Origin: a virus
Lineage: Duplodnaviria > Caudoviricetes
Strand: one strand, 5' to 3'
Length of the DNA: 54,569 nt
Virus record (IMG/VR): IMGVR_UViG_3300025886_000032
Location: 1 to 54,569 of that record
Shown: positions 5,791 through 21,155 of the stretch, in pieces
How the letters are laid out: every line of letters starts with the position of its first letter
Numbering within the stretch: the first letter of the stretch is position 1
Made by a program: the position numbers and the translations under genes
Notes under the pieces: model-generated
Databases searched by the model: none
Seen by the model: only the letters and a program-made list of their open reading frames with translations
Told to the model about the DNA's origin: nothing

Positions 5791-5820
5791 ATATAATTAC
5801 ATATTTATTTGTTAATTTAC
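5791..5820 (-). promoter_or_regulatory. class B promoter motif upstream of ERF
   Basis: GTAAA ttaacaaataaatat GTAATTATA, same spacing as the plus-strand copies. Confidence 0.6.
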
Positions 5821-6572
5821 AGATAATCAATCACTTGCGAGTGATCTACATTATCTATTAACTTGTTTACTGCTTGCTTTTTAAGCTCTGATACTCTTAC
5901 ATATGCAGATACCCCTTTAATTTCTAAACCTGCTGCTATATCATTAGCAGACCACTTTTTTCCATCAAGGCCATAGCTTTTATTTAAAACAAATACTTCG
6001 TCAGAAGTTAGATGTTTATTTAATAAACTTAATATATAAGCATTAAGCAGTGTTTCATTGTAAGGATCTGATTTATCAGGTATTTGATAAACCATATCTT
6101 CATCTGATGGATTAGCATCGATACTTAAGAATATGCTATTAAAAAACATAGCAACCATCTTTTTATCTTTACCACCATCTTTACGCATTTCATTTAGCTT
6201 ATGCTCAGGTATACGCATTGTACCTCTATTTATATCAATAGCTCTACGTATTCCACCTCTTATTCTTTTAGCTAAAAATGATTTTAAAGTTTTTTCAATA
6301 TCTTCAGATTCAAATAATCTAGTTCTATCTATTTTATCTACAGCTTTACATAATTGTAAACTACCTTCTTGTATTATATCGTTTATAGACATAACACCTG
6401 AAGCTTCTTGCGATGTAGCAAACTTTCTTGATATATTTTCTACTAAAGGTAAGAATATTACTTTAAGTTCTTCAGGCTTATAATCAACAAATCTTTTTGA
6501 TTTAACTGCTTCAATAACTCTTTTAACATCTTCTTTATACCTAACGTAGTTTTTTACATTATATTTTTTCAT
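5817..6572 (-). CDS. RNA polymerase sigma-70 family factor
   Basis: Region 2: LPLVENISRKF...DIIQEG..LCKAVDK...IRGGIRRAI...MRIP; region 4: LTSDEVFVLNKSYGLDG...DIA...RVSELKKQAVNKL. Confidence 0.88.
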   Translation of the reverse strand: MKKYNVKNYVRYKEDVKRVIEAVKSKRFVDYKPEELKVIFLPLVENISRKFATSQEASGVMSINDIIQEGSLQLCKAVDKIDRTRLFESEDIEKTLKSFLAKRIRGGIRRAIDINRGTMRIPEHKLNEMRKDGGKDKKMVAMFFNSIFLSIDANPSDEDMVYQIPDKSDPYNETLLNAYILSLLNKHLTSDEVFVLNKSYGLDGKKWSANDIAAGLEIKGVSAYVRVSELKKQAVNKLIDNVDHSQVIDYL

Positions 6573-8920: not shown

Positions 8921-9136
8921 TTATACTGATTTTAGCTTTTTAAGTCTTTTATGCTTTTCTGCATTACTTAACTCATCCCAATCACTTGGTGGTTGCCAAT
9001 CAGGTATACTAGCTCTCATTGTAGCAAAAGCTATTTTTTCTTGGTATTTGACGGCCATATCTGATAGCTCGTCACCTTGTTTAGTTGATAGATCCCCTAA
9101 CAACATAAACGCTTTCATCATATTTATATTACTCAT
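8921..9136 (-). CDS. hypothetical protein
   Basis: 71-aa ORF, PSDWDELS..EK..RL motif. Confidence 0.7.
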   Translation of the reverse strand: MSNINMMKAFMLLGDLSTKQGDELSDMAVKYQEKIAFATMRASIPDWQPPSDWDELSNAEKHKRLKKLKSV

Positions 9137-9310
9137 ACCACGAAAAGCCCGTACCTTTTGAGTACGAGCCTGACATATGAGTAAGAGCAGTCATTTGATT
9201 AGTGTCACGGTTATCCATCCGATGGGAGTTCGACATTTGCCTATACGCTTTGTACCTCCATATCACACATATTATTTATTCGCTGAACATTTTCACATTA
9301 TTCGTGGAAA
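9129..9310 (-). ncRNA. putative structured non-coding / cis-regulatory RNA
   Basis: About 190-nt ORF-free, GC-elevated gap; CCACGAA (9301-9307) can pair with UUCGUGG (9138-9144); contains a hairpin shared with 11214-11257. Confidence 0.5.
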
Positions 9311-9325
9311 CTAAACTACTATTAA

Positions 9326-9766
9326 CTAACTAACAGTTTCTTCAATTTCTTCGGCTTCTAAGCCATATTCATCTTTTAATTCTTGTATTTCAGCTGGCGT
9401 TAAGCCATAACCTTCTTCATCATTATTTTCAATAATGTCGTCGATAGTTTCACCAAAATGTTCAAGCATTGCATCATCCATGTATAAGTCATCCCATAGG
9501 TATTCATCCATATGTAATAGAGTTTCGCTACCGCCATTGTATTGTATTTCTTCCATAACAGCAGATGCTAGATCAGATTCATAATAGTATACGTTTTCAC
9601 AGATGTTTATATCTTTTAAACTATGAGTCAATACCCATACATCATAGCCATCTACGGTGGATTCATTGTAGCAATACAAGTCACAGCCATCATTAAAGCT
9701 GTCAGTTATTGTTAAACCAAGAGCTTTCTTAGCTATTTTAATCATTTTTTCTTCAGTTAGTGTCAT
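9326..9766 (-). CDS. highly acidic hypothetical protein
   Basis: 146-aa D/E-rich ORF. Confidence 0.75.
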   Translation of the reverse strand: MTLTEEKMIKIAKKALGLTITDSFNDGCDLYCYNESTVDGYDVWVLTHSLKDINICENVYYYESDLASAVMEEIQYNGGSETLLHMDEYLWDDLYMDDAMLEHFGETIDDIIENNDEEGYGLTPAEIQELKDEYGLEAEEIEETVS

Positions 9767-9771
9767 ATTAT

Positions 9772-9864
9772 TTAATTTAGTATTGAGACAGTTAGTAAAA
9801 TTGTATAGATTAATAGCGCTAAAACTGCCAATATTAGCGCTAAATCTCTTTTATCTTTATGCAT
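9772..9864 (-). CDS. small single-pass membrane peptide (30 aa)
   Basis: Manual: MHKDKRDLALILAVLALLIYTILLTVSILN; fills the gap and overlaps the upstream stop. Confidence 0.5.
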   Translation of the reverse strand: MHKDKRDLALILAVLALLIYTILLTVSILN

Positions 9865-10207
9865 TTGACTTGTTGATTTGCTTTATTGTATATAATACAA
9901 GTCTTTTTAGTCTTTCAGCTCTGTTCCAGATTAACATTCTGTTGTTTCTTTCAAATTCAACTTTGTTACCATTCCAGTTTATAGACTTTTCAATTGTCTT
10001 ATATTGTGGATTTAGTTGATAACAAGTATATATTCCACCATTTTTGTTTAGTATATTTTTTCTAATATAACCTGTTTTGTGTTCAGATATACAGTCACCT
10101 GTTGGTAATGTAAAGCAAGTTGTACCTCTTTTTATTTGAGATGGACTTGATGTATCTTTAGCACCTAGTGCTTTCAATGTTTCTAAAGCTAGTTTTTCTT
10201 CGTTCAT
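9857..10207 (-). CDS. hypothetical protein
   Basis: 116-aa ORF in early gene run. Confidence 0.7.
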   Translation of the reverse strand: MNEEKLALETLKALGAKDTSSPSQIKRGTTCFTLPTGDCISEHKTGYIRKNILNKNGGIYTCYQLNPQYKTIEKSINWNGNKVEFERNNRMLIWNRAERLKRLVLYTIKQINKSNA

Positions 10208-10209
10208 AT

Positions 10210-10431
10210 TTATTTATTTATTAGCCATTCACCCCATATAAGTTGTGACTGAGTAAGATCATGGTAAAATACATCGCCAAATGTGCAAACAGATCTTAGC
10301 TCATCAATAGTTAAGTCAGAGTAATTGTTTTTTTGTTTTAGTTTATCAAATAACCAGTTTACAGATTCATACTCTTTAGCATTTTCTTTCAATTTGGCTT
10401 TGATATGTGGTTTTAATTTATCGTATAACAT
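10210..10431 (-). CDS. hypothetical protein
   Basis: 73-aa ORF directly after a class A motif. Confidence 0.75.
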   Translation of the reverse strand: MLYDKLKPHIKAKLKENAKEYESVNWLFDKLKQKNNYSDLTIDELRSVCTFGDVFYHDLTQSQLIWGEWLINK

Positions 10432-10436
10432 ATTTA

Positions 10437-10468
10437 TATTATCTTATAGTGTTCGTATTTAGTTTGTA
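10437..10468 (-). promoter_or_regulatory. class A promoter motif copy 3
   Basis: TACAAA ct AAATACGA acactataa GATAATA; ATG (10431) 6 nt after GATAAT. Confidence 0.8.
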
Positions 10469-10656
10469 ATTTGTTTTTTAGTCATAGTTTTAACCTTTTC
10501 TTTTAGCTCTTTTGATATTTGAGTATAAAAACCAGGTGCAAATATAGATGTTTTACCTTCTTTTTCCATCTGTAATATATCGCTTTCAACTTGAGCTACA
10601 TAAAAAGTAAGTGCATCTATTATAAGATGTGACTCCATTCCGTTAAATTTCTTCAT
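10459..10656 (-). CDS. hypothetical protein
   Basis: 65-aa ORF, TAATG-coupled. Confidence 0.7.
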   Translation of the reverse strand: MKKFNGMESHLIIDALTFYVAQVESDILQMEKEGKTSIFAPGFYTQISKELKEKVKTMTKKQITN

Positions 10657-10808
10657 TATTTTAAGTTTTCTCGTCTATTTACTAAGTATTGTTCAAGTGC
10701 GTTGTAGAAATCTAATCTACTATTGTTTTCTCTAATACGTTTTACCTCGTTTAAAGGTATATCGTAATCACTTGACGTTTGTTTTAAAAAGTTTAATGAG
10801 TAGTTCAT
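10656..10808 (-). CDS. small hypothetical protein (50 aa)
   Basis: Manual: MNYSLNFLKQTSSDYDIPLNEV...; TAATG overlaps at both ends. Confidence 0.6.
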   Translation of the reverse strand: MNYSLNFLKQTSSDYDIPLNEVKRIRENNSRLDFYNALEQYLVNRRENLK

Positions 10809-11197
10809 TATTTTAGTTCTTGTATTAGTTTATGTATAATTTTACCGTGATTTTCATGATAAAACTCGAACCATTCGTCTTCAAATAGCTCTAAACCTGC
10901 TTCAGTTAAGTATTCTGTTGAGTCAAATACATAGTGTTTATTCATTTCATCACAAACTGCTTGAAATATTAAGTCATAAATGTGGCCATCTAGATCTTCT
11001 ATTATATTTTTAACAGTTTGATCTACCATTGCATGCTCAAAAGGATTTTTGTGTCGAAGTTGATGTTCAGCTATTGCTTTAGCTGTAGACTCACTACATG
11101 GATGAGTTCTGTTGTCTTTAACTTTCTCAATTTGAATATCTAAAGCTCTTTGATACTCTTTTGATTGTCTAATCTCGTTTAGTGTTCTTTGTTTCAT
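10808..11197 (-). CDS. hypothetical protein
   Basis: 129-aa ORF. Confidence 0.75.
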   Translation of the reverse strand: MKQRTLNEIRQSKEYQRALDIQIEKVKDNRTHPCSESTAKAIAEHQLRHKNPFEHAMVDQTVKNIIEDLDGHIYDLIFQAVCDEMNKHYVFDSTEYLTEAGLELFEDEWFEFYHENHGKIIHKLIQELK

Positions 11198-11213
11198 ATT
11201 AGTTTATTTTATC

Positions 11214-11257
11214 TACCACGAAAAGCCCATACCGGTTAAGTATGAGCTATAATTCGT
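11214..11257 (-). terminator. conserved stem-loop (terminator-like or processing site), copy 2
   Basis: AGCUCAUACU-UAACC-GGUAUGGGCU then UUUCGUGGUA; homologous to 9136-9170. Confidence 0.6.
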
Positions 11258-11267
11258 CAGTTGTTTG

Positions 11268-11411
11268 TCAACTTGTTACGTAAGTTAAACCTTTGTAGTT
11301 AAACCACGATGTTATGTCATCTGGTATACTATCTATAGTGTAACCTTTTAATAATTTGCCATCTAATCTAATTAGTGATCTGTCGCTTGGGTAAAATTTA
11401 ATTGTTTTCAT
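11268..11411 (-). CDS. small hypothetical protein (47 aa)
   Basis: Manual: MKTIKFYPSDRSLIRLDGKLLKGY...WFNYKGLTYVTS; follows a class A motif. Confidence 0.7.
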   Translation of the reverse strand: MKTIKFYPSDRSLIRLDGKLLKGYTIDSIPDDITSWFNYKGLTYVTS

Positions 11412-11416
11412 GTTAT

Positions 11417-11448
11417 TATTATCTATTAGTGTTCGTATTTAATTTGTA
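11417..11448 (-). promoter_or_regulatory. class A promoter motif copy 4
   Basis: TACAAA tt AAATACGA acactaata GATAATA; ATG (11411) 6 nt after GATAAT. Confidence 0.8.
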
Positions 11449-11610
11449 ATCTTGTATTAGTTTTCTTACTTCTGCACCTAGTTCTTGATTATTAGGATGT
11501 TTTATAGCTAGTTCTTTAACTACTAGTGCAAAAGTTGCTAGTAAAGATCTATTATCTTCTATTTGTTGTAAATCTTTATCCATAAAATCCCACTCTCTAT
11601 CTCTATTCAT
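11419..11610 (-). CDS. hypothetical protein
   Basis: 63-aa ORF with HPNNQELGAEVR motif. Confidence 0.7.
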   Translation of the reverse strand: MNRDREWDFMDKDLQQIEDNRSLLATFALVVKELAIKHPNNQELGAEVRKLIQDYKLNTNTNR

Positions 11611-11773
11611 TTTCTACACTTAAACTTATTATTAAATCACCTTCATATATTTTCTTAGCTTGCATTAGTGAGTATGTCCACTTTTGCCACTCTGTTCCAC
11701 ATTTCTGTGTCCAACCGTAGATACCATCTTGTATATCTTGAGCTATTGCTTCAATTTTTTGTTGTTCAGTCAT
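11603..11773 (-). CDS. small hypothetical protein (56 aa)
   Basis: Manual: MTEQQKIEAIAQDIQDGIYGWTQKCGTEWQKW... Confidence 0.65.
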   Translation of the reverse strand: MTEQQKIEAIAQDIQDGIYGWTQKCGTEWQKWTYSLMQAKKIYEGDLIISLSVENE

Positions 11774-11961
11774 TGTTTTTCTATTATTTTTTGTATATAT
11801 TCTTCATTGTCTATTATGTCGACGGCTAAATCTAGCAAATCTCGCAAACCGTTTAACTCATACTCATTTAAGTTTTCTGTTTCGCCATTATTTATTGCTT
11901 GTACACAATCATTTAAATCTCTTGCAGTATTTTCAAACCTGCAGTAACTCATATTGCTCAT
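11770..11961 (-). CDS. conserved small phage protein
   Basis: MSNMSYCRFENT..DL.DC motif typical of phage early genes. Confidence 0.75.
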   Translation of the reverse strand: MSNMSYCRFENTARDLNDCVQAINNGETENLNEYELNGLRDLLDLAVDIIDNEEYIQKIIEKQ

Positions 11962-12110
11962 TTCTTTTTAGTTTTTAATATGTTAATCTCACTTTTTAAC
12001 TGGTGGATTTCAGTTTGACACTTTCTCATTTGTAGTTTATTACCCGTATCTTGGTAAAATTGATTCCATGAGTACAAATTTTGTAATGATTTAATCTTTT
12101 TTGCTATCAT
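11958..12110 (-). CDS. small hypothetical protein (50 aa)
   Basis: Manual: MIAKKIKSLQNLYSWNQFY...; ATGA-coupled to next gene. Confidence 0.6.
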   Translation of the reverse strand: MIAKKIKSLQNLYSWNQFYQDTGNKLQMRKCQTEIHQLKSEINILKTKKK

Positions 12111-12351
12111 TATCTTTTATTTTAGTTATTAAATTGTGTATTTCATCATAATTGAAAGTAGAATACACCTTATCTACTTCTTTTTGTACGTATTCGTACG
12201 TAAATTCTTTCATTGAAACACCAAACAGTGAGACAACTAGATCGCGAGGTGAATAACCATAAGGAGATTTATGTTTATTGAAGATCATGAGTTTGATATT
12301 ACCGTCACCGTAATTGATTGCTGTTAAGTTGTCTGTATTTATATATTTCAT
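12091..12351 (-). CDS. hypothetical protein
   Basis: 86-aa ORF directly after a class A motif. Confidence 0.7.
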   Translation of the reverse strand: MKYINTDNLTAINYGDGNIKLMIFNKHKSPYGYSPRDLVVSLFGVSMKEFTYEYVQKEVDKVYSTFNYDEIHNLITKIKDNDSKKD

Positions 12352-12356
12352 ATTTA

Positions 12357-12388
12357 TATTATCTTTTAAGTATTGTATTATTTTTGTA
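12357..12388 (-). promoter_or_regulatory. class A promoter motif copy 5
   Basis: TACAAA aa TAATACAA tacttaaaa GATAATA; ATG (12351) 6 nt after GATAAT. Confidence 0.8.
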
Positions 12389-12809
12389 TTAATTTTGAAA
12401 GTTTTATTATATTATTATATTGGTTTTGAGATATTTCTAAATTATCTAAAGCTCTATTAATATAACGCTTTGCAATTTCTTCGTCAACTTCTAAATAATC
12501 AATGTAAGTTTTACCTATGTGCTCATAAGATTTATCGTTACCGATAGTGGTTAATGAACATCCATTTATTATTTTAGCTTTACGTTGACTTGTTGAACCA
12601 CCAGACATTGATCTTAGTATACCAAAACCTGCTCTTCGAGTAAGTTTACTAGCTTTGTCTGCATCTTCACGTGACATTACTTGAATAGTATTGCCAGTTT
12701 TATGATGGATAGTGTCAATACAACCGAGTTTTTCTTCAGTTGAACACTCGACACAGACGGTATAGCCAAGATCTAATCTTGCTTGTGGAATATTGTGGTT
12801 ACATTTCAT
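12378..12809 (-). CDS. protein with N-terminal DksA/TraR-like zinc finger
   Basis: C...IPQARL.LGYTVCVECS. Confidence 0.6.
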   Translation of the reverse strand: MKCNHNIPQARLDLGYTVCVECSTEEKLGCIDTIHHKTGNTIQVMSREDADKASKLTRRAGFGILRSMSGGSTSQRKAKIINGCSLTTIGNDKSYEHIGKTYIDYLEVDEEIAKRYINRALDNLEISQNQYNNIIKLSKLIQK

Positions 12810-12814
12810 ATATA

Positions 12815-12846
12815 TATTATCTAACGGTGATTGTATTTATTTTGTA
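12815..12846 (-). promoter_or_regulatory. class A promoter motif copy 6
   Basis: TACAAA at AAATACAA tcaccgtta GATAATA; ATG (12809) 6 nt after GATAAT. Confidence 0.8.
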
Positions 12847-13068
12847 TTATTTTAAATCTTCATTAGTCATTGGTTGAAATAATTCACTTCTCATATACTT
12901 TACTATTTTTATAGTCATTTCATTGAATAAATTCATATAAGCGTCATTAGTTTCTGGGAAGTTTTCATGTTCCTGTAGTTCATATTCTAGCTCATTAGCT
13001 AGTTTTTCATATAGTGAGTCAACTACTCTCACAGTAATTTCGTCTTTTTCTTCGTTAGTTATTTTCAT
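12847..13068 (-). CDS. hypothetical protein
   Basis: 73-aa acidic ORF. Confidence 0.7.
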   Translation of the reverse strand: MKITNEEKDEITVRVVDSLYEKLANELEYELQEHENFPETNDAYMNLFNEMTIKIVKYMRSELFQPMTNEDLK

Positions 13069-13069
13069 A

Positions 13070-13288
13070 TTATTTATTTATTAGTAAATCTTCAGTTTCA
13101 TTTAATATATTTAAGTAGTATTCTGCATAAGTAGTATCCATACTTCCACTATTTAAATCTTCATATACCCAACTTTTAATGTATTGTACATTAGTAAGAG
13201 CTTCTTCAACTTTAGTTCCATCTTTTTTAGCTGTGTATCCAAGTAATCCACTTGCGATAACACTCATTGACATTATTATTTTATTCAT
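13070..13288 (-). CDS. hypothetical protein with N-terminal hydrophobic segment
   Basis: MNKIIMSMSVIASGLLGY. Confidence 0.65.
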   Translation of the reverse strand: MNKIIMSMSVIASGLLGYTAKKDGTKVEEALTNVQYIKSWVYEDLNSGSMDTTYAEYYLNILNETEDLLINK

Positions 13289-13358
13289 ATTATTTATATT
13301 TAGTTTTCTATCATTCCCATTATTATTGATAGAGTTGTTAAGGTTATAATTATTGTTA

Positions 13359-13517
13359 TCATATTACTTGTACTTTATATATTACTTCTTCCATTACTAT
13401 TCCTAGTTCTTCCATGAAATCTCTCATGTCGTCACAAATGTAGTTTTTATCATTAGTTAAATATAGTGGTTCTTCTATTTCACCATAGTATATTTCAAAT
13501 TCATAGTTATCTATCAT
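13359..13517 (-). CDS. small acidic protein (52 aa) downstream of the hammerhead
   Basis: Manual: MIDNYEFEIYYGEIEEPLYL...; A-rich leader. Confidence 0.6.
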   Translation of the reverse strand: MIDNYEFEIYYGEIEEPLYLTNDKNYICDDMRDFMEELGIVMEEVIYKVQVI

Positions 13518-13531
13518 ATTATTTATTTATT

Positions 13532-13581
13532 GTTTAAGACTACTTACGTAGTTTCGAGTATTAAACTCTCGTCAGTTAAAC
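13532..13581 (-). ncRNA. hammerhead ribozyme, type I
   Basis: GUUUAA CUGACGA GAGU-uuaau-ACUC GAAA CUAC-guaa-GUAG UC^UUAAAC: complete core with stems I-III all paired, intergenic. Confidence 0.92.
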
Positions 13582-13586
13582 TTATT

Positions 13587-13754
13587 TTAATATCCCCATT
13601 TATCAACTTCAGATTCATAAGGTGGATTTAACCACTTTGGATTATTTACCATTTCATCATGACACCATTGTTTCTCGTTGTCACCAAGTTGTTCGTAGTG
13701 CATATCAAATTCTGACATTGCTACTTTATCTATTGTAGTATTTATATTATTCAT
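13587..13754 (-). CDS. small hypothetical protein (55 aa)
   Basis: Manual: MNNINTTIDKVAMSEFDMHYEQLGDNEKQWCHDE...; ATGA-coupled. Confidence 0.65.
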   Translation of the reverse strand: MNNINTTIDKVAMSEFDMHYEQLGDNEKQWCHDEMVNNPKWLNPPYESEVDKWGY

Positions 13755-13951
13755 AGTACTTGATTTAGTAGTTCATAAACATCATCTTGTTGAGTTTTGT
13801 TTAGTGTCATGAAAACACCATTAGCTTCACCAGGATAATTTAGAACATGGTTTATACATTGTTGAGTAAGTTCAGCTTGATTTACTGTTTGATTCATTTC
13901 ATCAAAAGCTTTTGACCAAGACCAGTTTGAAGGATTATTTGGATTATACAT
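13751..13951 (-). CDS. hypothetical protein
   Basis: 66-aa ORF with A-rich leader. Confidence 0.7.
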   Translation of the reverse strand: MYNPNNPSNWSWSKAFDEMNQTVNQAELTQQCINHVLNYPGEANGVFMTLNKTQQDDVYELLNQVL

Positions 13952-13990
13952 AGTTATTTATTTTATTTAGTTATTAATTAGTTTGTGGTG

Positions 13991-14044
13991 AGTCAAGTGT
14001 TCGTTTTATTTAGAGACGCTAAAGTATGACTATCAACTACGTCT
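13991..14044 (-). ncRNA. putative H-type pseudoknot leader RNA
   Basis: AGACG/CGUCU stem; loop AGUCA complementary to downstream UGACU across an A-rich linker; immediately after class A copy 7. Confidence 0.4.
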
Positions 14045-14055
14045 GTTGTTTATTA

Positions 14056-14087
14056 TATTATCTTTTAAGTATTGTATTTAATTTGTA
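14056..14087 (-). promoter_or_regulatory. class A promoter motif copy 7
   Basis: TACAAA tt AAATACAA tacttaaaa GATAATA; followed by a ~100-nt leader. Confidence 0.8.
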
Positions 14088-14245
14088 TAAGCTGGACAGT
14101 TATTGTAGTTTTTATTTACATGCATTCCATATTTAGTTATAGATACTTTACTTGTAGTTTTACATGAAGTAGATAACATTGATAGTATTATTATTGAAAT
14201 TACTATTGTTAAAGTACCGACATGAGTTGTATTTAGTTTATTCAT
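14078..14245 (-). CDS. small lipoprotein (55 aa)
   Basis: Manual: MNKLNTTHVGTLTIVISIIILSMLSTS-C-KTTSK...NNCPAYTN; hydrophobic signal plus lipobox Cys. Confidence 0.65.
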   Translation of the reverse strand: MNKLNTTHVGTLTIVISIIILSMLSTSCKTTSKVSITKYGMHVNKNYNNCPAYTN

Positions 14246-14347
14246 TTTATTGTTTTTAAAAGGTGTATATTTATTTATTAGTTATTATTAGTTGTTAGGT
14301 CTAGCACTTGTTCTCTCATTAACTTACATAGTTAATATTATAAAAGT

Positions 14348-14392
14348 GTGACATTAGCTAGTTAAATAAGTAGAGTAACTACCTATTGTCAC
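14348..14392. promoter_or_regulatory. palindromic site copy 2
   Basis: GTGACATTAG-N13-TAGAGTAA-N4-CTATTGTCAC, intergenic. Confidence 0.75.
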
Positions 14393-14395
14393 ATA

Positions 14396-14647
14396 TTACT
14401 CAGATACTAAATGATCTAAGATTTCACTGTATTCTCTACAGAATTTTGGAACAGTATTACTATTTGTATAAGATTTGTACTGTTGGAAACATGGCATACT
14501 TTCAAACTTTTCTTGAAATGTTGAATAGATTTCATCATGATCATAAGTAAATTTATAGCCTTTTTTGTTAGTGAAAGTGATTACAGTATTTGTACCGAGT
14601 AAAGACTTTCTGATTACAAATCTTTTAGTTGTTATTTTATTATTCAT
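14396..14647 (-). CDS. hypothetical protein
   Basis: 83-aa ORF (RFVIRKSLLG...YTNSNTVPKF). Confidence 0.75.
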   Translation of the reverse strand: MNNKITTKRFVIRKSLLGTNTVITFTNKKGYKFTYDHDEIYSTFQEKFESMPCFQQYKSYTNSNTVPKFCREYSEILDHLVSE

Positions 14648-14692
14648 AGTTTATATTTATTTATTTATTTATATTTAGTTTAGTTATGTTAT

Positions 14693-14724
14693 TATTATCT
14701 TTTGTAGTTTGTATTTTGTTTGTA
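14693..14724 (-). promoter_or_regulatory. class A promoter motif copy 8
   Basis: TACAAA ca AAATACAA actacaaaa GATAATA. Confidence 0.8.
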
Positions 14725-14748
14725 ATTAATTAGTTTGTATTTAGTTAA

Positions 14749-14886
14749 TTATTTATTTAACTTATTTATTAAATATTTTAACGATTCTGATAAACCAAAG
14801 TCTGTTACGTTACCGTTTAAGTATTGGTTTAATTCGTCGATAGTTGCGAGTATTTCGATTTTAGTATTATTATTTATATTTTGCAT
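14749..14886 (-). CDS. first left-arm gene, small hypothetical protein (45 aa)
   Basis: Manual: MQNINNNTKIEILATIDELNQYLNGNVTDFGLSESLKYLINKLNK. Confidence 0.6.
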   Translation of the reverse strand: MQNINNNTKIEILATIDELNQYLNGNVTDFGLSESLKYLINKLNK

Positions 14887-14933
14887 AGTATTATTTTTAT
14901 TTAGTTATTATTTATTTATTTATCTTATACTAT

Positions 14934-14965
14934 TATTATCTTAACCACTCTGTATTATATTTGTA
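14934..14965 (-). promoter_or_regulatory. class A promoter motif copy 9
   Basis: TACAAA ta TAATACAG agtggttaa GATAATA. Confidence 0.78.
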
Positions 14966-14994
14966 TTAAATTTAGTTAGTTAATTGAAATGTCA

Positions 14995-15125
14995 AAGGCC
15001 TAATGGTATCGGAGGGGCCAGGGGTAAACGTCAAACGTATACGATATGGGGAATAAAACGAAGGGGGCCCATGAAATGAAAACGTAAAAGGTTATTGGCC
15101 TTGGTCGTAGGGGGGAGGGGGCAAC
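14995..15125. other. G-rich non-coding island at the strand switch (candidate origin, packaging or terminus region)
   Basis: Six G4-G6 runs on the plus strand and repeated AAACG in an otherwise AT-rich region; gene orientation diverges here. Confidence 0.5.
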
Positions 15126-15160
15126 ACAAATAATATACACATCTAATATAATTAAAAAAG

Positions 15161-15204
15161 GTGACACTAGGTACCTAGTATATAGAGTAACAGGCTACTG
15201 TCAC
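15161..15204. promoter_or_regulatory. palindromic site copy 3
   Basis: GTGACACTAG-N12-TAGAGTAA-N4-CTACTGTCAC. Confidence 0.75.
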
Positions 15205-15226
15205 ACTATTAATTCAGCTCGTTTAT

Positions 15227-15258
15227 GTAAATTATTCAAAAAACATGTGAATAGCTAT
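15227..15258 (+). promoter_or_regulatory. class B promoter motif at start of right arm
   Basis: GTAAA ttattcaaaaaacat GTGAATAGCTAT (downstream box slightly divergent). Confidence 0.55.
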
Positions 15259-15301
15259 TAATATACGTATAAAAAGAATATTCATTTAAAAAAACATAAT
15301 T

Positions 15302-15478
15302 ATGCCAAGTTATAATCCAGATAAAGGAGCAGTAAAAGGTTTAGCTGACAGAGGAAGAGCTAAGATATTAGGACACATGGGTGGAAGAGGAGTAGGAAAG
15401 AAGATTAATTTTGATTCTTCTACAAATAAAGGAATTAAAGGGTTAGGTAATCCTGATGCAGAGGGTAAATACATTTAG
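15302..15478 (+). CDS. small Gly/Lys-rich protein (58 aa)
   Basis: Manual: MPSYNPDKGAVKGLADRGRAKILGHMGG...; A-rich leader. Confidence 0.65.
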   Translation: MPSYNPDKGAVKGLADRGRAKILGHMGGRGVGKKINFDSSTNKGIKGLGNPDAEGKYI

Positions 15479-15480
15479 AT

Positions 15481-15711
15481 ATGAAAAAGATGGACAAGTA
15501 TGAGGATAAAAAAGCCTCAATGGACGATTACTCGCACGAAAGAAAACTAAGAATAGACGGTAGATATGAAGCTGCACATGGAAAGATGGCAGCAGCTAAA
15601 AACGATTTTGATCATGCACATGCTTTAAAGAAAGATGCACACTATGATGCTAAGAACAGAAGAGATAAGAATTATAGACATCCGATATTAAAACATAATC
15701 ACTCTAAATAA
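15481..15711 (+). CDS. small charged His-rich protein
   Basis: 76-aa ORF. Confidence 0.7.
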   Translation: MKKMDKYEDKKASMDDYSHERKLRIDGRYEAAHGKMAAAKNDFDHAHALKKDAHYDAKNRRDKNYRHPILKHNHSK

Positions 15712-15719
15712 TAAACAAA

Positions 15720-16460
15720 ATGAGTCTTGGAAAAAATTTATTAAAAAAAACAGGATCTAGCGGTGGTGGGCCAAATAATGGATTACCAGTAGGTAATAAA
15801 CCCATTAAATCTATAACATCGACTGGAATCCCAACAAAGACAGATGTTTTAGCAGGTCAAAAAGAAGCATATCCTGGCATGAAGTTTGGCCCAAATCAAG
15901 TTAACGTAGCTAAAAACACTATAAGTTCACAAGGCGCTAAACCAGGTAGCCAAGTTACTACAACTAAAAATGTGAAAGTTACAGAAGGAGCAACAGGAGG
16001 TAAACAAACTACAGATCAAAATGCTTACATGTCTGGTTTAGCTAAAAGATTTCCAGGTGCATCAGGTGAAGAATTAGCTAAAAAAATACCAGGTAGTAAA
16101 GGGAGTTATATTTCTTCAAGTATGATTGATAAGTATAATAAAAGTTATTATACACCTAAAACAGTAACTACTGGTACTCCTGGAGCAGAAGCAGTGGTAT
16201 CTGCACCAATAGAATTAGATAATGAAGCAGAAAAACAAACTACTGGTGAAAACACTGTAGAAACAAAGACAACTCCAGATGATAAGACAACTAAAGATAA
16301 TAAACTTGGTAACTTGCCAATTGGTTCTGCAAATATTACCAAAGGAGGCACTGGCAGGAAAGCTAGTAATCCTATAAATCCTGTATCTTTAGCAAGTGAC
16401 GCTTCTACAAGCAAAGATTTTAATCTAAAGCTTAACAATCAAGCTGTTAATAAAGCTTAA
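15720..16460 (+). CDS. low-complexity G/K/T-rich hypothetical protein
   Basis: 246-aa ORF, probably largely disordered. Confidence 0.75.
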   Translation: MSLGKNLLKKTGSSGGGPNNGLPVGNKPIKSITSTGIPTKTDVLAGQKEAYPGMKFGPNQVNVAKNTISSQGAKPGSQVTTTKNVKVTEGATGGKQTTDQNAYMSGLAKRFPGASGEELAKKIPGSKGSYISSSMIDKYNKSYYTPKTVTTGTPGAEAVVSAPIELDNEAEKQTTGENTVETKTTPDDKTTKDNKLGNLPIGSANITKGGTGRKASNPINPVSLASDASTSKDFNLKLNNQAVNKA

Positions 16461-16471
16461 AAAAAATTAAA

Positions 16472-19207
16472 ATGGCAATAATATATACATATCCAAAACT
16501 TAATAATCCTCAAGGTAACGAATTAGTAGTTGTATCTGATGTAAATAACAAAAATTCAACTAGATTAATTACATTACAGTCAATAGCATCGTTAATTCCT
16601 TCAGGAGGAGATGGATGTAGTAATGCCATAAGTGGTATTCAGACACCAGTAGGAACATACAACGCTAATTTATGCACAACAACTTCTTTCACCTCTTCAG
16701 GTGGAAGTGTTTCAATAAGTAACACTACTGAAGGCGTTAATTTTGAAACTAACTGTATAAATAACTATGTTTTAAAACCTGTAATTTGTCAAGGAGCACA
16801 ATGCAATGCATCTACAGCATCTGAAACTTGGTTATTTAGCTGTGATTCTTCATTGAGTCAATATGCTGGAATAAATACTCCTGTTATTTTAGAAAATAAC
16901 GGATCAATAGTACCACATTCACAAAATTTAGACCCAAATAGTCCTACTAATTGTTTTTATGTAGAATTATGGAGTCCAACTGTTTCTTTAGCTAGTACTT
17001 GTCAGTCTTGCTGCAACGGGACTCCAGCAGAATTAAAATGTTTATACACTAAATGCTCTGGTGGAGATCCAAACATGCCAGATAATTTAACTTTTGATAA
17101 AGTTAATGATGCTTGTACTACAGGTGTTATATATGCAACTCAAACTGCTAGTAACTATTCTTCTTGTTATACCTACCTTAGTGAGGTTGATGCTCCAGCA
17201 AGCACTGGTTACACTTTTATTTCAGCAACAGATTGCAACCAAGCTCCTTGTATATCTACACCACAAGAGAAAACTTGGTTTAGATGTGAAAATAGTTGTG
17301 ATTTTGGTACGCTACCAGAAACAGTTTACGGAAATCAAATAAACGGGGACGGATTAGTAGTTCTTGGAAATGGTGTTAACGAAGCTTGTTATACGCTTAA
17401 TGGAACTAGTGACAATGTTCAAACTCCTGGTATAATTCAAATATCAGTTAACAATGGATTAGATTGCAATACTAGTGTTGAACAAGGTGTTTGTAAAGCT
17501 TCTTTATATCACTTTGTTAAGTGTGCTGATGCTTCTTGCACCGGTGATGCTGCTAGCGTAACAAACGTATATGCAACATCTAATTTTGGTCTAAGTACTG
17601 AAGAAGTTATTTTATTTGAATTTGACGACAGATCATCTTGTTGTTATGTTCTACAGTCAGAGCAAGTGTGCCAAAAAGTTACTCAAGGTATAAACTTTTC
17701 AACCGCTACAAAAGTTGAAGGTTTAGATCCGTGTGCAAGTGAAGCTTGTGGCGAAACACCACCTCCAGCTGAAAAATGGGTGTACAACAGCTGTTCCGGC
17801 TGTGACCCAATAGTTTCAACTACTCCGTTGCATACGCCAGGAATTCATAACTCTTTATGGTGGAACTGCTGTTATTATTCTGTGCCAGCATCAGTTGAAG
17901 CAACAAGTGCTCCAGACTCTGGAATAACTATCGAACAAGTTATAAAAAGTGATTTAAATTGTGAGTCACTATTAGCAAATAATCAAATAGAGTGGAGTAA
18001 ATGTGGTGATACAAATACTAAAATATACACTGACTGTTGTAATATTAATGAAGATTTACACTTAGGCTTTGTTGCAAAAGGTTTTAGTGGACCAGATGGT
18101 TGTTATGAGATAACAAGTCTAAATAAAGAGCAAGACACTTCACCATGTGATAATATTACCGAAACAACTTGCGCAGATGAAGATTGTACTGTACAAGAGT
18201 TTAAATGGCAAACAAGACTTTGTGATACAGAAATATTTACAGATGTAAGTACAGATTATACTGGTGATGCAGATAATTTAAATGAAATTTATACATTTGA
18301 AGGTGCAGATAATTGTTTTCAAATTCAAAAAGTAATTGGAACTGCAACTGGTGCTGCTGGTCCAACTATTATATCTGGACCATATAGTAGCACGGTAGAT
18401 GAAACCGCTTGTGAATGTTGCAATAATAAAAACCATCATAGATATAGTAAATGCCAGGTAAGTGAACCTTTATCAGGATGTGCAAATTTAGATCCAGTAA
18501 TTGTATTGGATATTGCTAATCCACCAAACGTTATACTTGTCGAACAAACTGAAACAGGCGATACTTGTTGTTATGAACTAGAAGGCAGTACTTGTGAAAA
18601 TGCAACAGTTGGTTATACATCAATAGATACACCCAAAGATTGTAAAGATGCGAAGTGTGTAGAACCAGTTAATAACTATCTTCTTAAACAATGTCTTGAC
18701 TCCACTTTGTCCGGATGCGAAGAAATGCCATCAAACGTAATTGTTTCTATTGGTGCTCCACTAGGTAGTACAGTTATATTACGTGATGACAACACTAATC
18801 GTGAATGTTGTTACGTCGTTGATAGTACAACCACTAGTGCTCCTACCGGAGGTTATACTATTCTACAATCTGTTAGTGATTGTGCGAGTGAACAATGTTT
18901 AGAAGCTCCAGTAGATATTGTTAAGCAATATACTAAATGCCAGCAAACAATAGAAGAAGGATCTGCATCTTGTAATCTAATGGCTCAAAATGTTAACATA
19001 AACATTGGACAAGGTCCAGCACAAACCAACGTGATAATTAGAGATTCCGCCACTGGTAATCAATGTTGTTATGTATTAGTAGGTGATGCTGTAGAGCCAA
19101 CTGAAAACCACGCAATAGTTAGCCCTATAAATGGCTGTGACGTAGAATCTTTAACCATAGCGAATTGTCTTGCTGAACGAAGTGGTGAACCACCAGTCTC
19201 TGGATGA
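16472..19207 (+). CDS. Cys-rich repeat protein, probable virion fibre or decoration
   Basis: N-terminal fibre-anchor-like MAIIYTYP...LVVVSD...TRLITLQSI; about 10 modules of about 75 aa with Y.KC, (C)CY and C....C. Confidence 0.7.
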   Translation: MAIIYTYPKLNNPQGNELVVVSDVNNKNSTRLITLQSIASLIPSGGDGCSNAISGIQTPVGTYNANLCTTTSFTSSGGSVSISNTTEGVNFETNCINNYVLKPVICQGAQCNASTASETWLFSCDSSLSQYAGINTPVILENNGSIVPHSQNLDPNSPTNCFYVELWSPTVSLASTCQSCCNGTPAELKCLYTKCSGGDPNMPDNLTFDKVNDACTTGVIYATQTASNYSSCYTYLSEVDAPASTGYTFISATDCNQAPCISTPQEKTWFRCENSCDFGTLPETVYGNQINGDGLVVLGNGVNEACYTLNGTSDNVQTPGIIQISVNNGLDCNTSVEQGVCKASLYHFVKCADASCTGDAASVTNVYATSNFGLSTEEVILFEFDDRSSCCYVLQSEQVCQKVTQGINFSTATKVEGLDPCASEACGETPPPAEKWVYNSCSGCDPIVSTTPLHTPGIHNSLWWNCCYYSVPASVEATSAPDSGITIEQVIKSDLNCESLLANNQIEWSKCGDTNTKIYTDCCNINEDLHLGFVAKGFSGPDGCYEITSLNKEQDTSPCDNITETTCADEDCTVQEFKWQTRLCDTEIFTDVSTDYTGDADNLNEIYTFEGADNCFQIQKVIGTATGAAGPTIISGPYSSTVDETACECCNNKNHHRYSKCQVSEPLSGCANLDPVIVLDIANPPNVILVEQTETGDTCCYELEGSTCENATVGYTSIDTPKDCKDAKCVEPVNNYLLKQCLDSTLSGCEEMPSNVIVSIGAPLGSTVILRDDNTNRECCYVVDSTTTSAPTGGYTILQSVSDCASEQCLEAPVDIVKQYTKCQQTIEEGSASCNLMAQNVNINIGQGPAQTNVIIRDSATGNQCCYVLVGDAVEPTENHAIVSPINGCDVESLTIANCLAERSGEPPVSG

Positions 19208-19598: not shown

Positions 19599-21155
19599 AT
19601 GAGTGAAACAATAGTTAAGCATTTAAACTTCGGTGATGATGCTAGAAATAAAATATTCTCAGGAATTGAAAAACTCACTAAAGCTGTTAGCTCCACATTA
19701 GGGGCTAGCGGCAAGTGTGTTATAATGGAGGATAATACGGGTAAACCAATAATAACCAAAGATGGTGTAACAGTTGCAGATACTATTACATTGTTAGACC
19801 CTGTTGAGAATATGGGTGCTAGACTCTTAAAAGAAGCAGCTCAAAGAACAGTTAAAGATGCAGGTGACGGAACAACAACAGCCACTATATTAGCAAAGTC
19901 TATATTGGATGAGGCTTACAAACACGAAAAAGCAGATACATTAAGAAATATTAAAGAAGGTATAAATCAAGGTGTAGAAAATGTTGTTAATTACTTACAG
20001 AAGAAAAGTAAAAAAGTTAGTGGTAAAAAAATTGATCAAGTTGCTACTATATCAGCTAACAACGATAGTACACTTGGAAAAATAATAGGTGAAGCATTTA
20101 GACTTGTAGATAGCACAGGTGTTGTAATGATGGAAACAAATGACGATACCACCACAGTAGTTGAAGTTGTAGACGGCGCTCAATATGAAAAAGGATTATT
20201 AAATACACATTTTGTAAATAATAAAGAAAAAAACTCTTGCGAACTAGATAACCCTTACATACTACTAATAGAAAATAGTATTGAAAACGTAAGACAGATA
20301 CAAAGTGTTTTAGAATTTATAATAAGAACTAACAAAAGCTTATTAATAATAGGAGATGCTGAACCAACTGTAGTTTCTGCATTAGCTATGAACAGGGTAA
20401 AAGGTAATATAAAGGTCAACATAATAAATGCACCTACACACGGCGTAAACAAACAAGTAACATTAGAAGACTTAGCTTTGATTACAGGTGCTACTTTAAT
20501 AAATGAAGACCTAGGTGACGATATGGATATGCTCACTGAAGAACATTTAGGTAGATGTAAAAAATCTACAACTACTCAAAGCGAGACTATACTACAGCTT
20601 GAAGATTTTAATGATGAGATTGAAAAAGTTATAGAAAGTATAAAAGACAAGTTGAAAAAGGAGAATAATCCAAATAAGATAGTTGCTTTAGAAAAAAGAT
20701 TAGCTAGATTATCAGGTAAGGTAGCGGTTGTAAAAGTAGGAGCTAACTCAGAAGTAGAATTAAAAGAAAAAAGAGATAGAGTTGAAGATGCTATTTGTGC
20801 TACAAAAGCCGCTATAAAAGAAGGTATAGTACCAGGTGGTGGGATTGCTTTGTTGAATGCAGCAAACAATCTTGAACCTAACAATATAGGAGAAGAAGTT
20901 CTATATAGTGCTATTAAAAAACCTTTTTTAGTTATATTAGAAAATGCTGGTATAACTGATTATAGTGCTCCAGATAACGAAGGCGAAGGTTTAAACGTGG
21001 TTACAGGAAAAACGGTGGATATGGTAAAAGCCGGAATAATAGATCCTTTACTCGTTACAAAAAGCGCTTTACAAAACGCGGCTTCTGTGGCTACAACTAT
21101 ATTATCTACTGATTGTGTAATTAATAATTTAAGAGCAAATGAAAGCGGTAGGTAA
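19599..21155 (+). CDS. groEL: chaperonin GroEL (phage-encoded)
   Basis: ITKDGVTVA, AGDGTTTAT, ATISANND, EKRDRVEDAICATKAA, GIVPGGG, GIIDP; no GGM tail. Confidence 0.97.
   Translation: MSETIVKHLNFGDDARNKIFSGIEKLTKAVSSTLGASGKCVIMEDNTGKPIITKDGVTVADTITLLDPVENMGARLLKEAAQRTVKDAGDGTTTATILAKSILDEAYKHEKADTLRNIKEGINQGVENVVNYLQKKSKKVSGKKIDQVATISANNDSTLGKIIGEAFRLVDSTGVVMMETNDDTTTVVEVVDGAQYEKGLLNTHFVNNKEKNSCELDNPYILLIENSIENVRQIQSVLEFIIRTNKSLLIIGDAEPTVVSALAMNRVKGNIKVNIINAPTHGVNKQVTLEDLALITGATLINEDLGDDMDMLTEEHLGRCKKSTTTQSETILQLEDFNDEIEKVIESIKDKLKKENNPNKIVALEKRLARLSGKVAVVKVGANSEVELKEKRDRVEDAICATKAAIKEGIVPGGGIALLNAANNLEPNNIGEEVLYSAIKKPFLVILENAGITDYSAPDNEGEGLNVVTGKTVDMVKAGIIDPLLVTKSALQNAASVATTILSTDCVINNLRANESGR

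Follow-up and report, generated by a model that had tools for sequence, protein, structure and literature searches.

We refer to the stretch of DNA analysed here as the window; it comprises a 54.6-kb virus record from IMG/VR with a completeness of 85%. Its plus-strand arm encodes GroEL, terminase, portal and virion proteins. The minus strand carries, beside a divergent switch region at about 15000-15300, a run of small open reading frames (ORFs), for which the label early micro-genes chosen in the initial annotation is fitting. Further on, the same strand encodes a DNA ligase, a sigma-like protein, Erf, an exonuclease, a primase-helicase, a thymidylate synthase and MazG. The GroEL-type chaperonin is located at 19599-21155 (E 2.5e-133), and the protein encoded at 5817-6572 weakly resembles an RNA polymerase sigma factor (E 4.1e-15). 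The large terminase and the TerL of the Flavobacterium elemo phages share 45% identity, and all 87 cultured phages with a matching terminase infect Flavobacteriia. The source is a marine phage of the Flavobacteriia type. The 1.5 kb around the site discussed below has no blastn match among cultured phages.

Two of the small minus-strand ORFs flank the element that we investigated. The upstream ORF (55 aa, 13587..13754) ends with a stop codon 5 nt before the first stem of the element, and the downstream ORF (52 aa, 13359..13517) begins MIDNYEFEIYYG. Both are as they had been described, reading 13754..13587 and 13517..13359 on the minus strand. They are followed by an ORF of 72 aa with a hydrophobic N-terminus (13070..13288, minus strand).

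Read on the minus strand from 13581 to 13532, the sequence between the first two ORFs contains a complete type I hammerhead ribozyme of 50 nt with every core position present. It begins with the 5' strand of stem I, GUUUAA (13576..13581), which pairs with UUAAAC (13532..13537), the outermost pair being G13581-C13532. The core segment C3-A9 follows as CUGACGA (13569..13575, with C at N7), and then stem II, GAGU/ACUC, which opens on G10.1-C11.1 and is closed by loop II, UUAAU (13556..13568), a loop that fits the UNANU consensus of the family alignment. The core residues G12, A13 and A14 (GAA, 13553..13555) lead into stem III, ACUAC/GUAGU with the loop GUAA (13539..13552), whose basal pair is A15.1-U16.1 (A13552-U13539), and H17 is C13538 and not G. 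In the descriptor scan the three helices around the core measure 6 bp (stem I), 4 bp (stem II) and 5 bp (stem III); stem I is open and the other two are closed by their loops, which is the type I topology. One A is located directly 5' of stem I (13582) and one directly 3' of it (13531). The initial annotation had every coordinate and sequence string right; for stem III the position and string stand, and the number of pairs is five instead of the four given, as A15.1 pairs with U16.1.

From the hammerhead consensus, the cut is predicted between C17 (13538) and the following U (13537..13538), as had been proposed. Hammerhead cleavage leaves a 2',3'-cyclic phosphate and a 5'-OH, predicted here on 13538 and 13537, respectively, and UUAAAC, the 3' strand of stem I, would become the 5' end of the downstream RNA. 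The A-rich spacer between the ribozyme and the ATG, AAUAAAUAAAUAAU (13518..13531), contains no Shine-Dalgarno sequence, and the leader that remains after the cut measures 20 nt (13537-13518), with the ATG at 13517. A-rich leaders without a Shine-Dalgarno sequence fit hosts of the Flavobacteriia type.

RNAfold returns the three-stem junction as the minimum-energy structure of the site; the folding energy is unremarkable on its own (z -1.01). When both strands of the whole window are scanned with the hammerhead descriptor, the only match is the site at 13581..13532. None of 400 dinucleotide-preserving shuffles of the window contained an equally good motif, and 10 of the 400 contained a loose match.

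Transcription context

No terminator-like site was found on the minus strand from 15200 to 10891, which makes the early polycistron suggested in the initial annotation a fair reading. Promoter searches were uninformative for this region: the scan for sigma-70 promoters returned 43 sites, no better than chance with 41.0 expected from shuffles, and the 81 matches to a Bacteroidetes-type -7 box are scattered, with nothing useful near the ribozyme. The intergenic regions also contain a repeated AT-rich element of 36-60 nt, found mostly just 5' of minus-strand start codons, with copies at 11396-11456, 12336-12396, 12804-12854, 14048-14088, 14672-14731 and 14913-14972; within two of these, 12354-12389 and 14053-14088 are 92% identical. 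We regard the repeats as candidates for promoters or regulatory sites that serve the early small genes. If they have such a role, the ribozyme lies inside a five-gene unit that extends from about 14050 to 12850. The repeats may also mean that the region is divided into several short transcription units, and the extent of the polycistron is therefore uncertain.

The divergent intergenic region, which otherwise has a GC content of 26%, surrounds a G-rich island at 14990-15125 that contains several stretches of 4-6 consecutive G on the plus strand. Considered as a structured RNA, this island folds no better than shuffled sequences on either strand and has no match in Rfam.

Related sequence is present in 19 runs of RNA data, as Logan contigs only and in small shares, displayed without their ends. 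For four marine metatranscriptome runs, all from one study, we inspected the interval 9000-18000; the contigs come from relatives, with many differences and joints, and none of those listed spans the ribozyme. Bins from 9000 to 15000 are covered and those from 15300 to 18000 are almost empty, a pattern that is not readable as expression. In two RNA libraries, contigs join position 13520 to position 14270 with three other letters in between, one side of the joint being only 20 letters long. This is a weak indication that a relative may lack the four genes and the ribozyme between 13520 and 14270, which would fit module shuffling.

Comparison with known hammerheads and a phage subfamily

Searched at gathering scores, Rfam has no match anywhere in the window. 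The initial annotation had proposed the Rfam hammerhead models as a check, and these models miss the site: RF00163 (Hammerhead_1, gathering threshold 34 bits) has no match at E <= 10 over the whole record, and RF03152 (RAGATH-1-hammerhead) aligns to the site with 24.1 bits, below its gathering score of 56.3 (E 0.047 in a search of 251 bases, E 0.0024 for the record). The other four rows returned for the 251 bases in E-value mode are snoRNA or sRNA noise. The site thus fails the threshold of every curated Rfam family, and comparative evidence is needed.

The element has the features of the class that RF00163 describes, i.e., the motifs CUGANGA and GAAA, the pairs A15.1-U16.1 and G10.1-C11.1, C17, an open stem I, and stems II and III closed by loops. 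It differs from that class in its stem I, which has only 6 bp and no internal bulge. RAGATH-1 is the only Rfam hammerhead-type model that aligns to the site, and it shares with the window element the type I topology and the short stem I; however, the upstream hairpin of RAGATH-1 is not convincingly matched, and the RAGATH-1 stem II is minimal, whereas there are four regular pairs here. The window element is not a member of RAGATH-1.

We built a covariance model, R1, from 40 phage hammerheads, none of them from the phage clade of the window; the training set was chosen for pairing, and its 100% paired figure is so by construction. Run without filters, R1 assigns 60.8 bits to the site (E 1.4e-13), and the runner-up in the window reaches 14 bits. 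Given this score, the absence of a Rfam match reflects a limit of those models and is not evidence against the hammerhead class. The Rfam hammerhead models overlook an abundant phage subfamily.

Two sequence patterns were used to collect further members from viral contigs. The first kept stem I and the core of the window element fixed and left stems II and III free. It returned 32 stretches: 29 perfect hammerheads, one with an A10.1/A11.1 mismatch, and two that are not hammerheads. Among the 24 distinct sequences, the window included, 99.4% of the cells are paired and seven pairs are changed on both sides. The covariation score of this set is 0.532, compared to 0.110 for shuffled alignments (0 of 500 reached it), and slid controls are about 35% paired. 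The second pattern fixed the core and the loop II consensus and left stem I free; it matched at least 120 stretches. The first 80 loci contain 104 matches, of which 102 adopt a type I hammerhead fold; their stem I sequences are widely different. In the R1 set, which was selected for pairing, all six stem I pairs and 13 of the 16 pairs overall are changed on both sides. Compensatory changes are found in all three stems, i.e., the stems covary. The sets used to measure covariation were partly selected by pairing criteria, and the 102 of 104 is the figure least affected by this selection.

The alignment reveals a subfamily with marks that go beyond the minimal motif. Stem I has exactly 6 bp in 187 of 198 distinct family hammerheads. 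Among 165 members, the outermost pair of stem I is G-C in 160, the base 5' of stem I is A in 164 and the base 3' of it is A in 163. Loop II has U at position 1 in all 165, A at position 3 in 161 and U at position 5 in 159, frequencies that are partly imposed by the second pattern; the loop consensus is also present in the set from the first pattern, in which the loop had not been fixed, with U26 invariant and A28 and U30 at 90% or above. H17 is C in 154 of the 165 members and A in 11, and N7 varies freely (U in 95, C in 46, A in 18 and G in 6). The window element has all of the subfamily marks (A13582, G13581-C13532, A13531, a stem II of 4 bp, and UUAAU); stem III is free in the subfamily. The complete core, the three stems, the covariation in homologues and the strong score with an independent model uphold, at the level of sequence, the canonical type I hammerhead identity proposed in the initial annotation.

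The conserved positions on both sides of stem I and in loop II could have reflected a pseudoknot, and we compared the free loop II positions with the 10 nt of either flank. Mutual information does not exceed 0.11 and pairing is at background level. With no Watson-Crick covariation between loop and flank, we read the conserved flanking A residues and loop II as a putative non-Watson-Crick tertiary contact rather than a pseudoknot. In hammerheads, fast cleavage at physiological Mg2+ is due to a tertiary contact that links the loop of stem II with stem I. In the Schistosoma ribozyme, mentioned in the available part of a review (PMC6155905), a bulge in stem I contacts loop II, whereas in the window element the candidate partners of the loop would be the invariant flanking A residues.

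The placement of the family in phage genomes is also characteristic. Measured over the 198 distinct members, the median distance from a same-strand stop codon to the beginning of the ribozyme is 1 nt (10 nt or less in 113 of 188), and the next same-strand start codon follows the cut at a median of 30 nt (40 nt or less in 129 of 185). Several family contigs have two to four copies on one strand. The viral contigs L068, L094, L136 and L137 each have three or four subfamily hammerheads on one strand, 300-1000 nt apart, and each copy is immediately 5' of a ribosome-binding site; the copies in L068 have a common stem I and differ in stems II and III.

A member of the subfamily is also found in a cultured phage. 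In the genome of Flavobacterium phage vB_FspP_elemoF_6-3D (NC_055853.1), R1 matches a hammerhead between gp65 and gp67 with 42.2 bits (E 6.8e-10; 1494-1557 in our excerpt L195, about 16042-16105 in NC_055853.1). Like the window element, it has a stem I of 6 bp, the A flanks and the loop UUAAU, it is located in a run of small same-strand genes, and the TerL proteins of the two phages are those that are 45% identical; unlike the window element, it has mismatches in two of the four stem II pairs and a longer stem III. NC_055853.1 annotates at this place not an RNA but the antisense gp66 of 35 aa, which is unlikely to be a real gene. An antisense ORF is annotated over the ribozyme in at least one deposited phage genome. 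A blastn match is present in the elemoD and elemoE records as well.

Phage hammerheads flanking small genes have been on record since 2011, and the window element is no new kind of RNA. According to the available portions of Perreault et al. (2011; PMC3088659), hammerheads in phages and prophages flank genes and cleave both in vitro and in E. coli, and in the haloviruses HF1 and HF2 a hammerhead that is located near a mapped transcript 5' end precedes the start of an early gene by 13 nt. The clustered phage hammerheads described in those portions resemble the window element in being intergenic and co-oriented with small, non-conserved phage genes; they differ in forming arrays, whereas hammerheads in the clade of the window occur as a single copy per genome, and the hosts of the window phage are of the marine Flavobacteriia type. 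As far as the accessible text of that study goes, the subfamily may already be contained in its alignments (Dataset S1, Figure S5). The Flavobacteriia-phage literature was sampled in part, and this sample contained no mention of hammerheads, which we regard as a weak negative.

Distribution among relatives and linkage to a gene cassette

Homologues of the upstream 55-aa gene occur at 19 loci in viral contigs, and a hammerhead follows the gene in none of the 19. Homologues of the downstream 52-aa gene were found at 13 loci; a canonical hammerhead is located upstream of the gene in one of them (L034) and a variant in two (L032 and L033). In the remaining loci the genes are joined by a short AT-rich spacer without a ribozyme. 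In L034 the element is at the same place as in the window, its stem II reads GAUC/GAUC, which amounts to two compensatory pairs, and R1 scores it at 60.7 bits. The contig L056 contains an identical copy of the window's ribozyme. Near-identical copies in the clade have an unaltered core; they differ at N7, in loop III and by paired substitutions in stem II.

The variants in L033 (2398-2485) and L032 (2395-2482), upstream of the 52-aa homologue, score 21.7 bits with R1. In the R1 alignment they have U10.1-U11.1, the loop UCAAU, A17 and an imperfect stem III of 49 nt. As a candidate for a different RNA, this insert matches no Rfam family, and its fold does not surpass those of shuffles; R1 interprets it as a variant of the hammerhead.

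We also searched the whole records of 25 relatives with R1 and found no canonical copy anywhere in them; 8 of these 25 records are at least 90% complete. Five records retrieved with the stem I pattern have one copy each, and one of the five is a 100%-complete genome of 63 kb. When eight loci are compared, the gene upstream of the ribozyme differs, with five different upstream genes preceding near-identical ribozymes, whereas the family of the 72-aa ORF (13070-13288 in the window) is found downstream in seven of the eight, either directly or after the 52-aa gene. The ribozyme behaves like the 5'-terminal component of a mobile cassette; it is sporadic, and dispensable for the clade.

What the cut may do

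We consider it likely that the element is a functional type I hammerhead within a minus-strand early mRNA of a Flavobacteriia-type phage. Self-cleavage is the part of this reading that we hold most firmly, and the element very probably cuts itself. That it lies inside one polycistronic transcript is probable, and that the cut matters for the expression of the flanking genes is a reading that we favour by a small measure.

Once transcribed, the element would fold into the three-stem junction and sever its own backbone directly 3' of C17, at the 13538/13537 bond. The upstream RNA, with the 55-aa gene and whatever precedes it, would then terminate with the compact ribozyme fold and a 2',3'-cyclic phosphate. 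The downstream RNA would begin with a 5'-OH and an unstructured, A-rich leader of 20 nt, and would carry the genes for the 52-aa, 72-aa and 73-aa proteins. In this way the cut would uncouple the downstream small-gene cassette from its upstream context, with respect to both stability and translation, and the ribozyme would act as a natural insulator. The linkage to the cassette leads to this proposal: the cassette would receive an identical leader wherever it is inserted. A comparable arrangement is RiboJ, which we take to be an engineered insulator derived from the ribozyme of a plant satellite RNA, of hammerhead type and placed just 5' of the ribosome-binding region. By analogy with RiboJ, which provides the downstream gene with a defined 5' end whatever lies upstream, the arrangement in the window would do likewise. 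We know of no phage hammerhead for which a natural insulating role has been shown.

The processing of a polycistron that yields a downstream mRNA with a 5'-OH, as proposed in the initial annotation, is consistent with the position of the family between stop and start codons, and it matches the hypothesis put forward in the available part of PMC3088659, and discussed in excerpts of two reviews (PMC6765202, PMC6155905), that phage hammerheads cut long transcripts into gene-length mRNAs.

An alternative explanation, which we regard as unlikely although it is the strongest of the rivals, is that the ribozyme is active but travels as a passenger of the mobile downstream small-gene module, with little or no benefit for expression in the phage. 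The patchy distribution described above (no canonical copy in the records of 25 relatives, one each in five others) is what a passenger would be expected to leave behind, as are near-identical ribozymes that follow five different upstream genes and precede the same downstream family; moreover, the same gene junctions work without a ribozyme. However, the differences within the clade are limited to neutral ones (N7, loop III and paired substitutions in stem II), and an untouched core with only neutral changes points to selection for activity. The placement of the family, close behind a stop codon and with a start codon about 30 nt further on, also suggests a role that is tied to translation units.

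The same placement can be read from the other side of the cut. If the main role of the ribozyme was to form the 3' end of the upstream RNA, then the cut and the retained fold would substitute for a terminator and protect against 3' exonucleases, and the downstream fragment would be a by-product or be degraded. The type I topology leaves nearly the whole ribozyme with the upstream fragment, the median gap between stop codon and ribozyme is 1 nt, no intrinsic terminator was found nearby on the minus strand, and a function of bacterial ribozymes in 3'-UTRs is discussed in the part of PMC6765202 available to us. Nevertheless, in 129 of 185 cases a start codon lies within 40 nt of the cut, and in the window a cassette of three genes follows; with a start codon and a cassette this close, the downstream RNA is unlikely to be waste, and we consider a main role in 3'-end formation improbable.

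Less probable still is cleavage that is conditional. A ribosome that terminates on the stop codon of the upstream gene, which precedes stem I by 5 nt, would cover the 5' strand of stem I and delay folding, or the cutting might depend on translation of the upstream gene, on Mg2+ or on the state of the host; we judge these variants jointly to be very unlikely. What speaks for them is geometry, with a stop codon no more than 10 nt away from stem I in 113 of 188 members, and the possibility of regulated cutting in phages that is raised in the accessible part of PMC3088659. However, no sensor domain and no alternative pairing is conserved with the ribozyme (mutual information between loop II and flank is at most 0.11), and the tight spacing may just reflect the compactness of phage genomes.

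That the site is a chance match or an inactive relic without cleavage, a reading prompted by the Rfam miss, the energy z-score of -1.01 and a rough estimate that the approximately 250,000 windows scanned would yield a few perfect motifs by chance, is extremely unlikely given the score of 60.8 bits with an independent model, the identical copy in L056 together with near-identical copies that differ at neutral or compensated positions only, and the presence of family features beyond the minimal motif (an A at both -1 and +1, the G-C pair closing stem I, and UNANU).

We return to the reading of the ribozyme as an element that separates the cassette from its upstream context. In its most general form, this reading would hold that the subfamily with a 6-bp stem I, A flanks and a UNANU loop is a natural insulator that travels with small-gene cassettes, and that the invariant flanking A residues form a novel contact with loop II. 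We offer this general form tentatively, and it may well turn out to be wrong.

In their available parts, two reviews (PMC6765202, PMC6155905) still treat the reason for the abundance of self-cleaving ribozymes in phages as an open question. The locus in the window is a clean natural test case for it. The downstream cassette is recognisable, and a cultured relative from the elemo group, which grows on Flavobacterium sp. BAL314, has a member of the subfamily. There is a single copy per genome, so that effects of other copies do not overlap with those of the ribozyme, and close relatives without a ribozyme at the same gene junction serve as natural knock-outs. If the insulator reading is true, the first gene of the cassette would obtain the same short 5'-OH leader at any recombination site, and the contact between loop II and the flanking A residues would be one not yet seen in a solved hammerhead structure. 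It would also explain why hammerheads recur beside shuffled, non-conserved phage genes.
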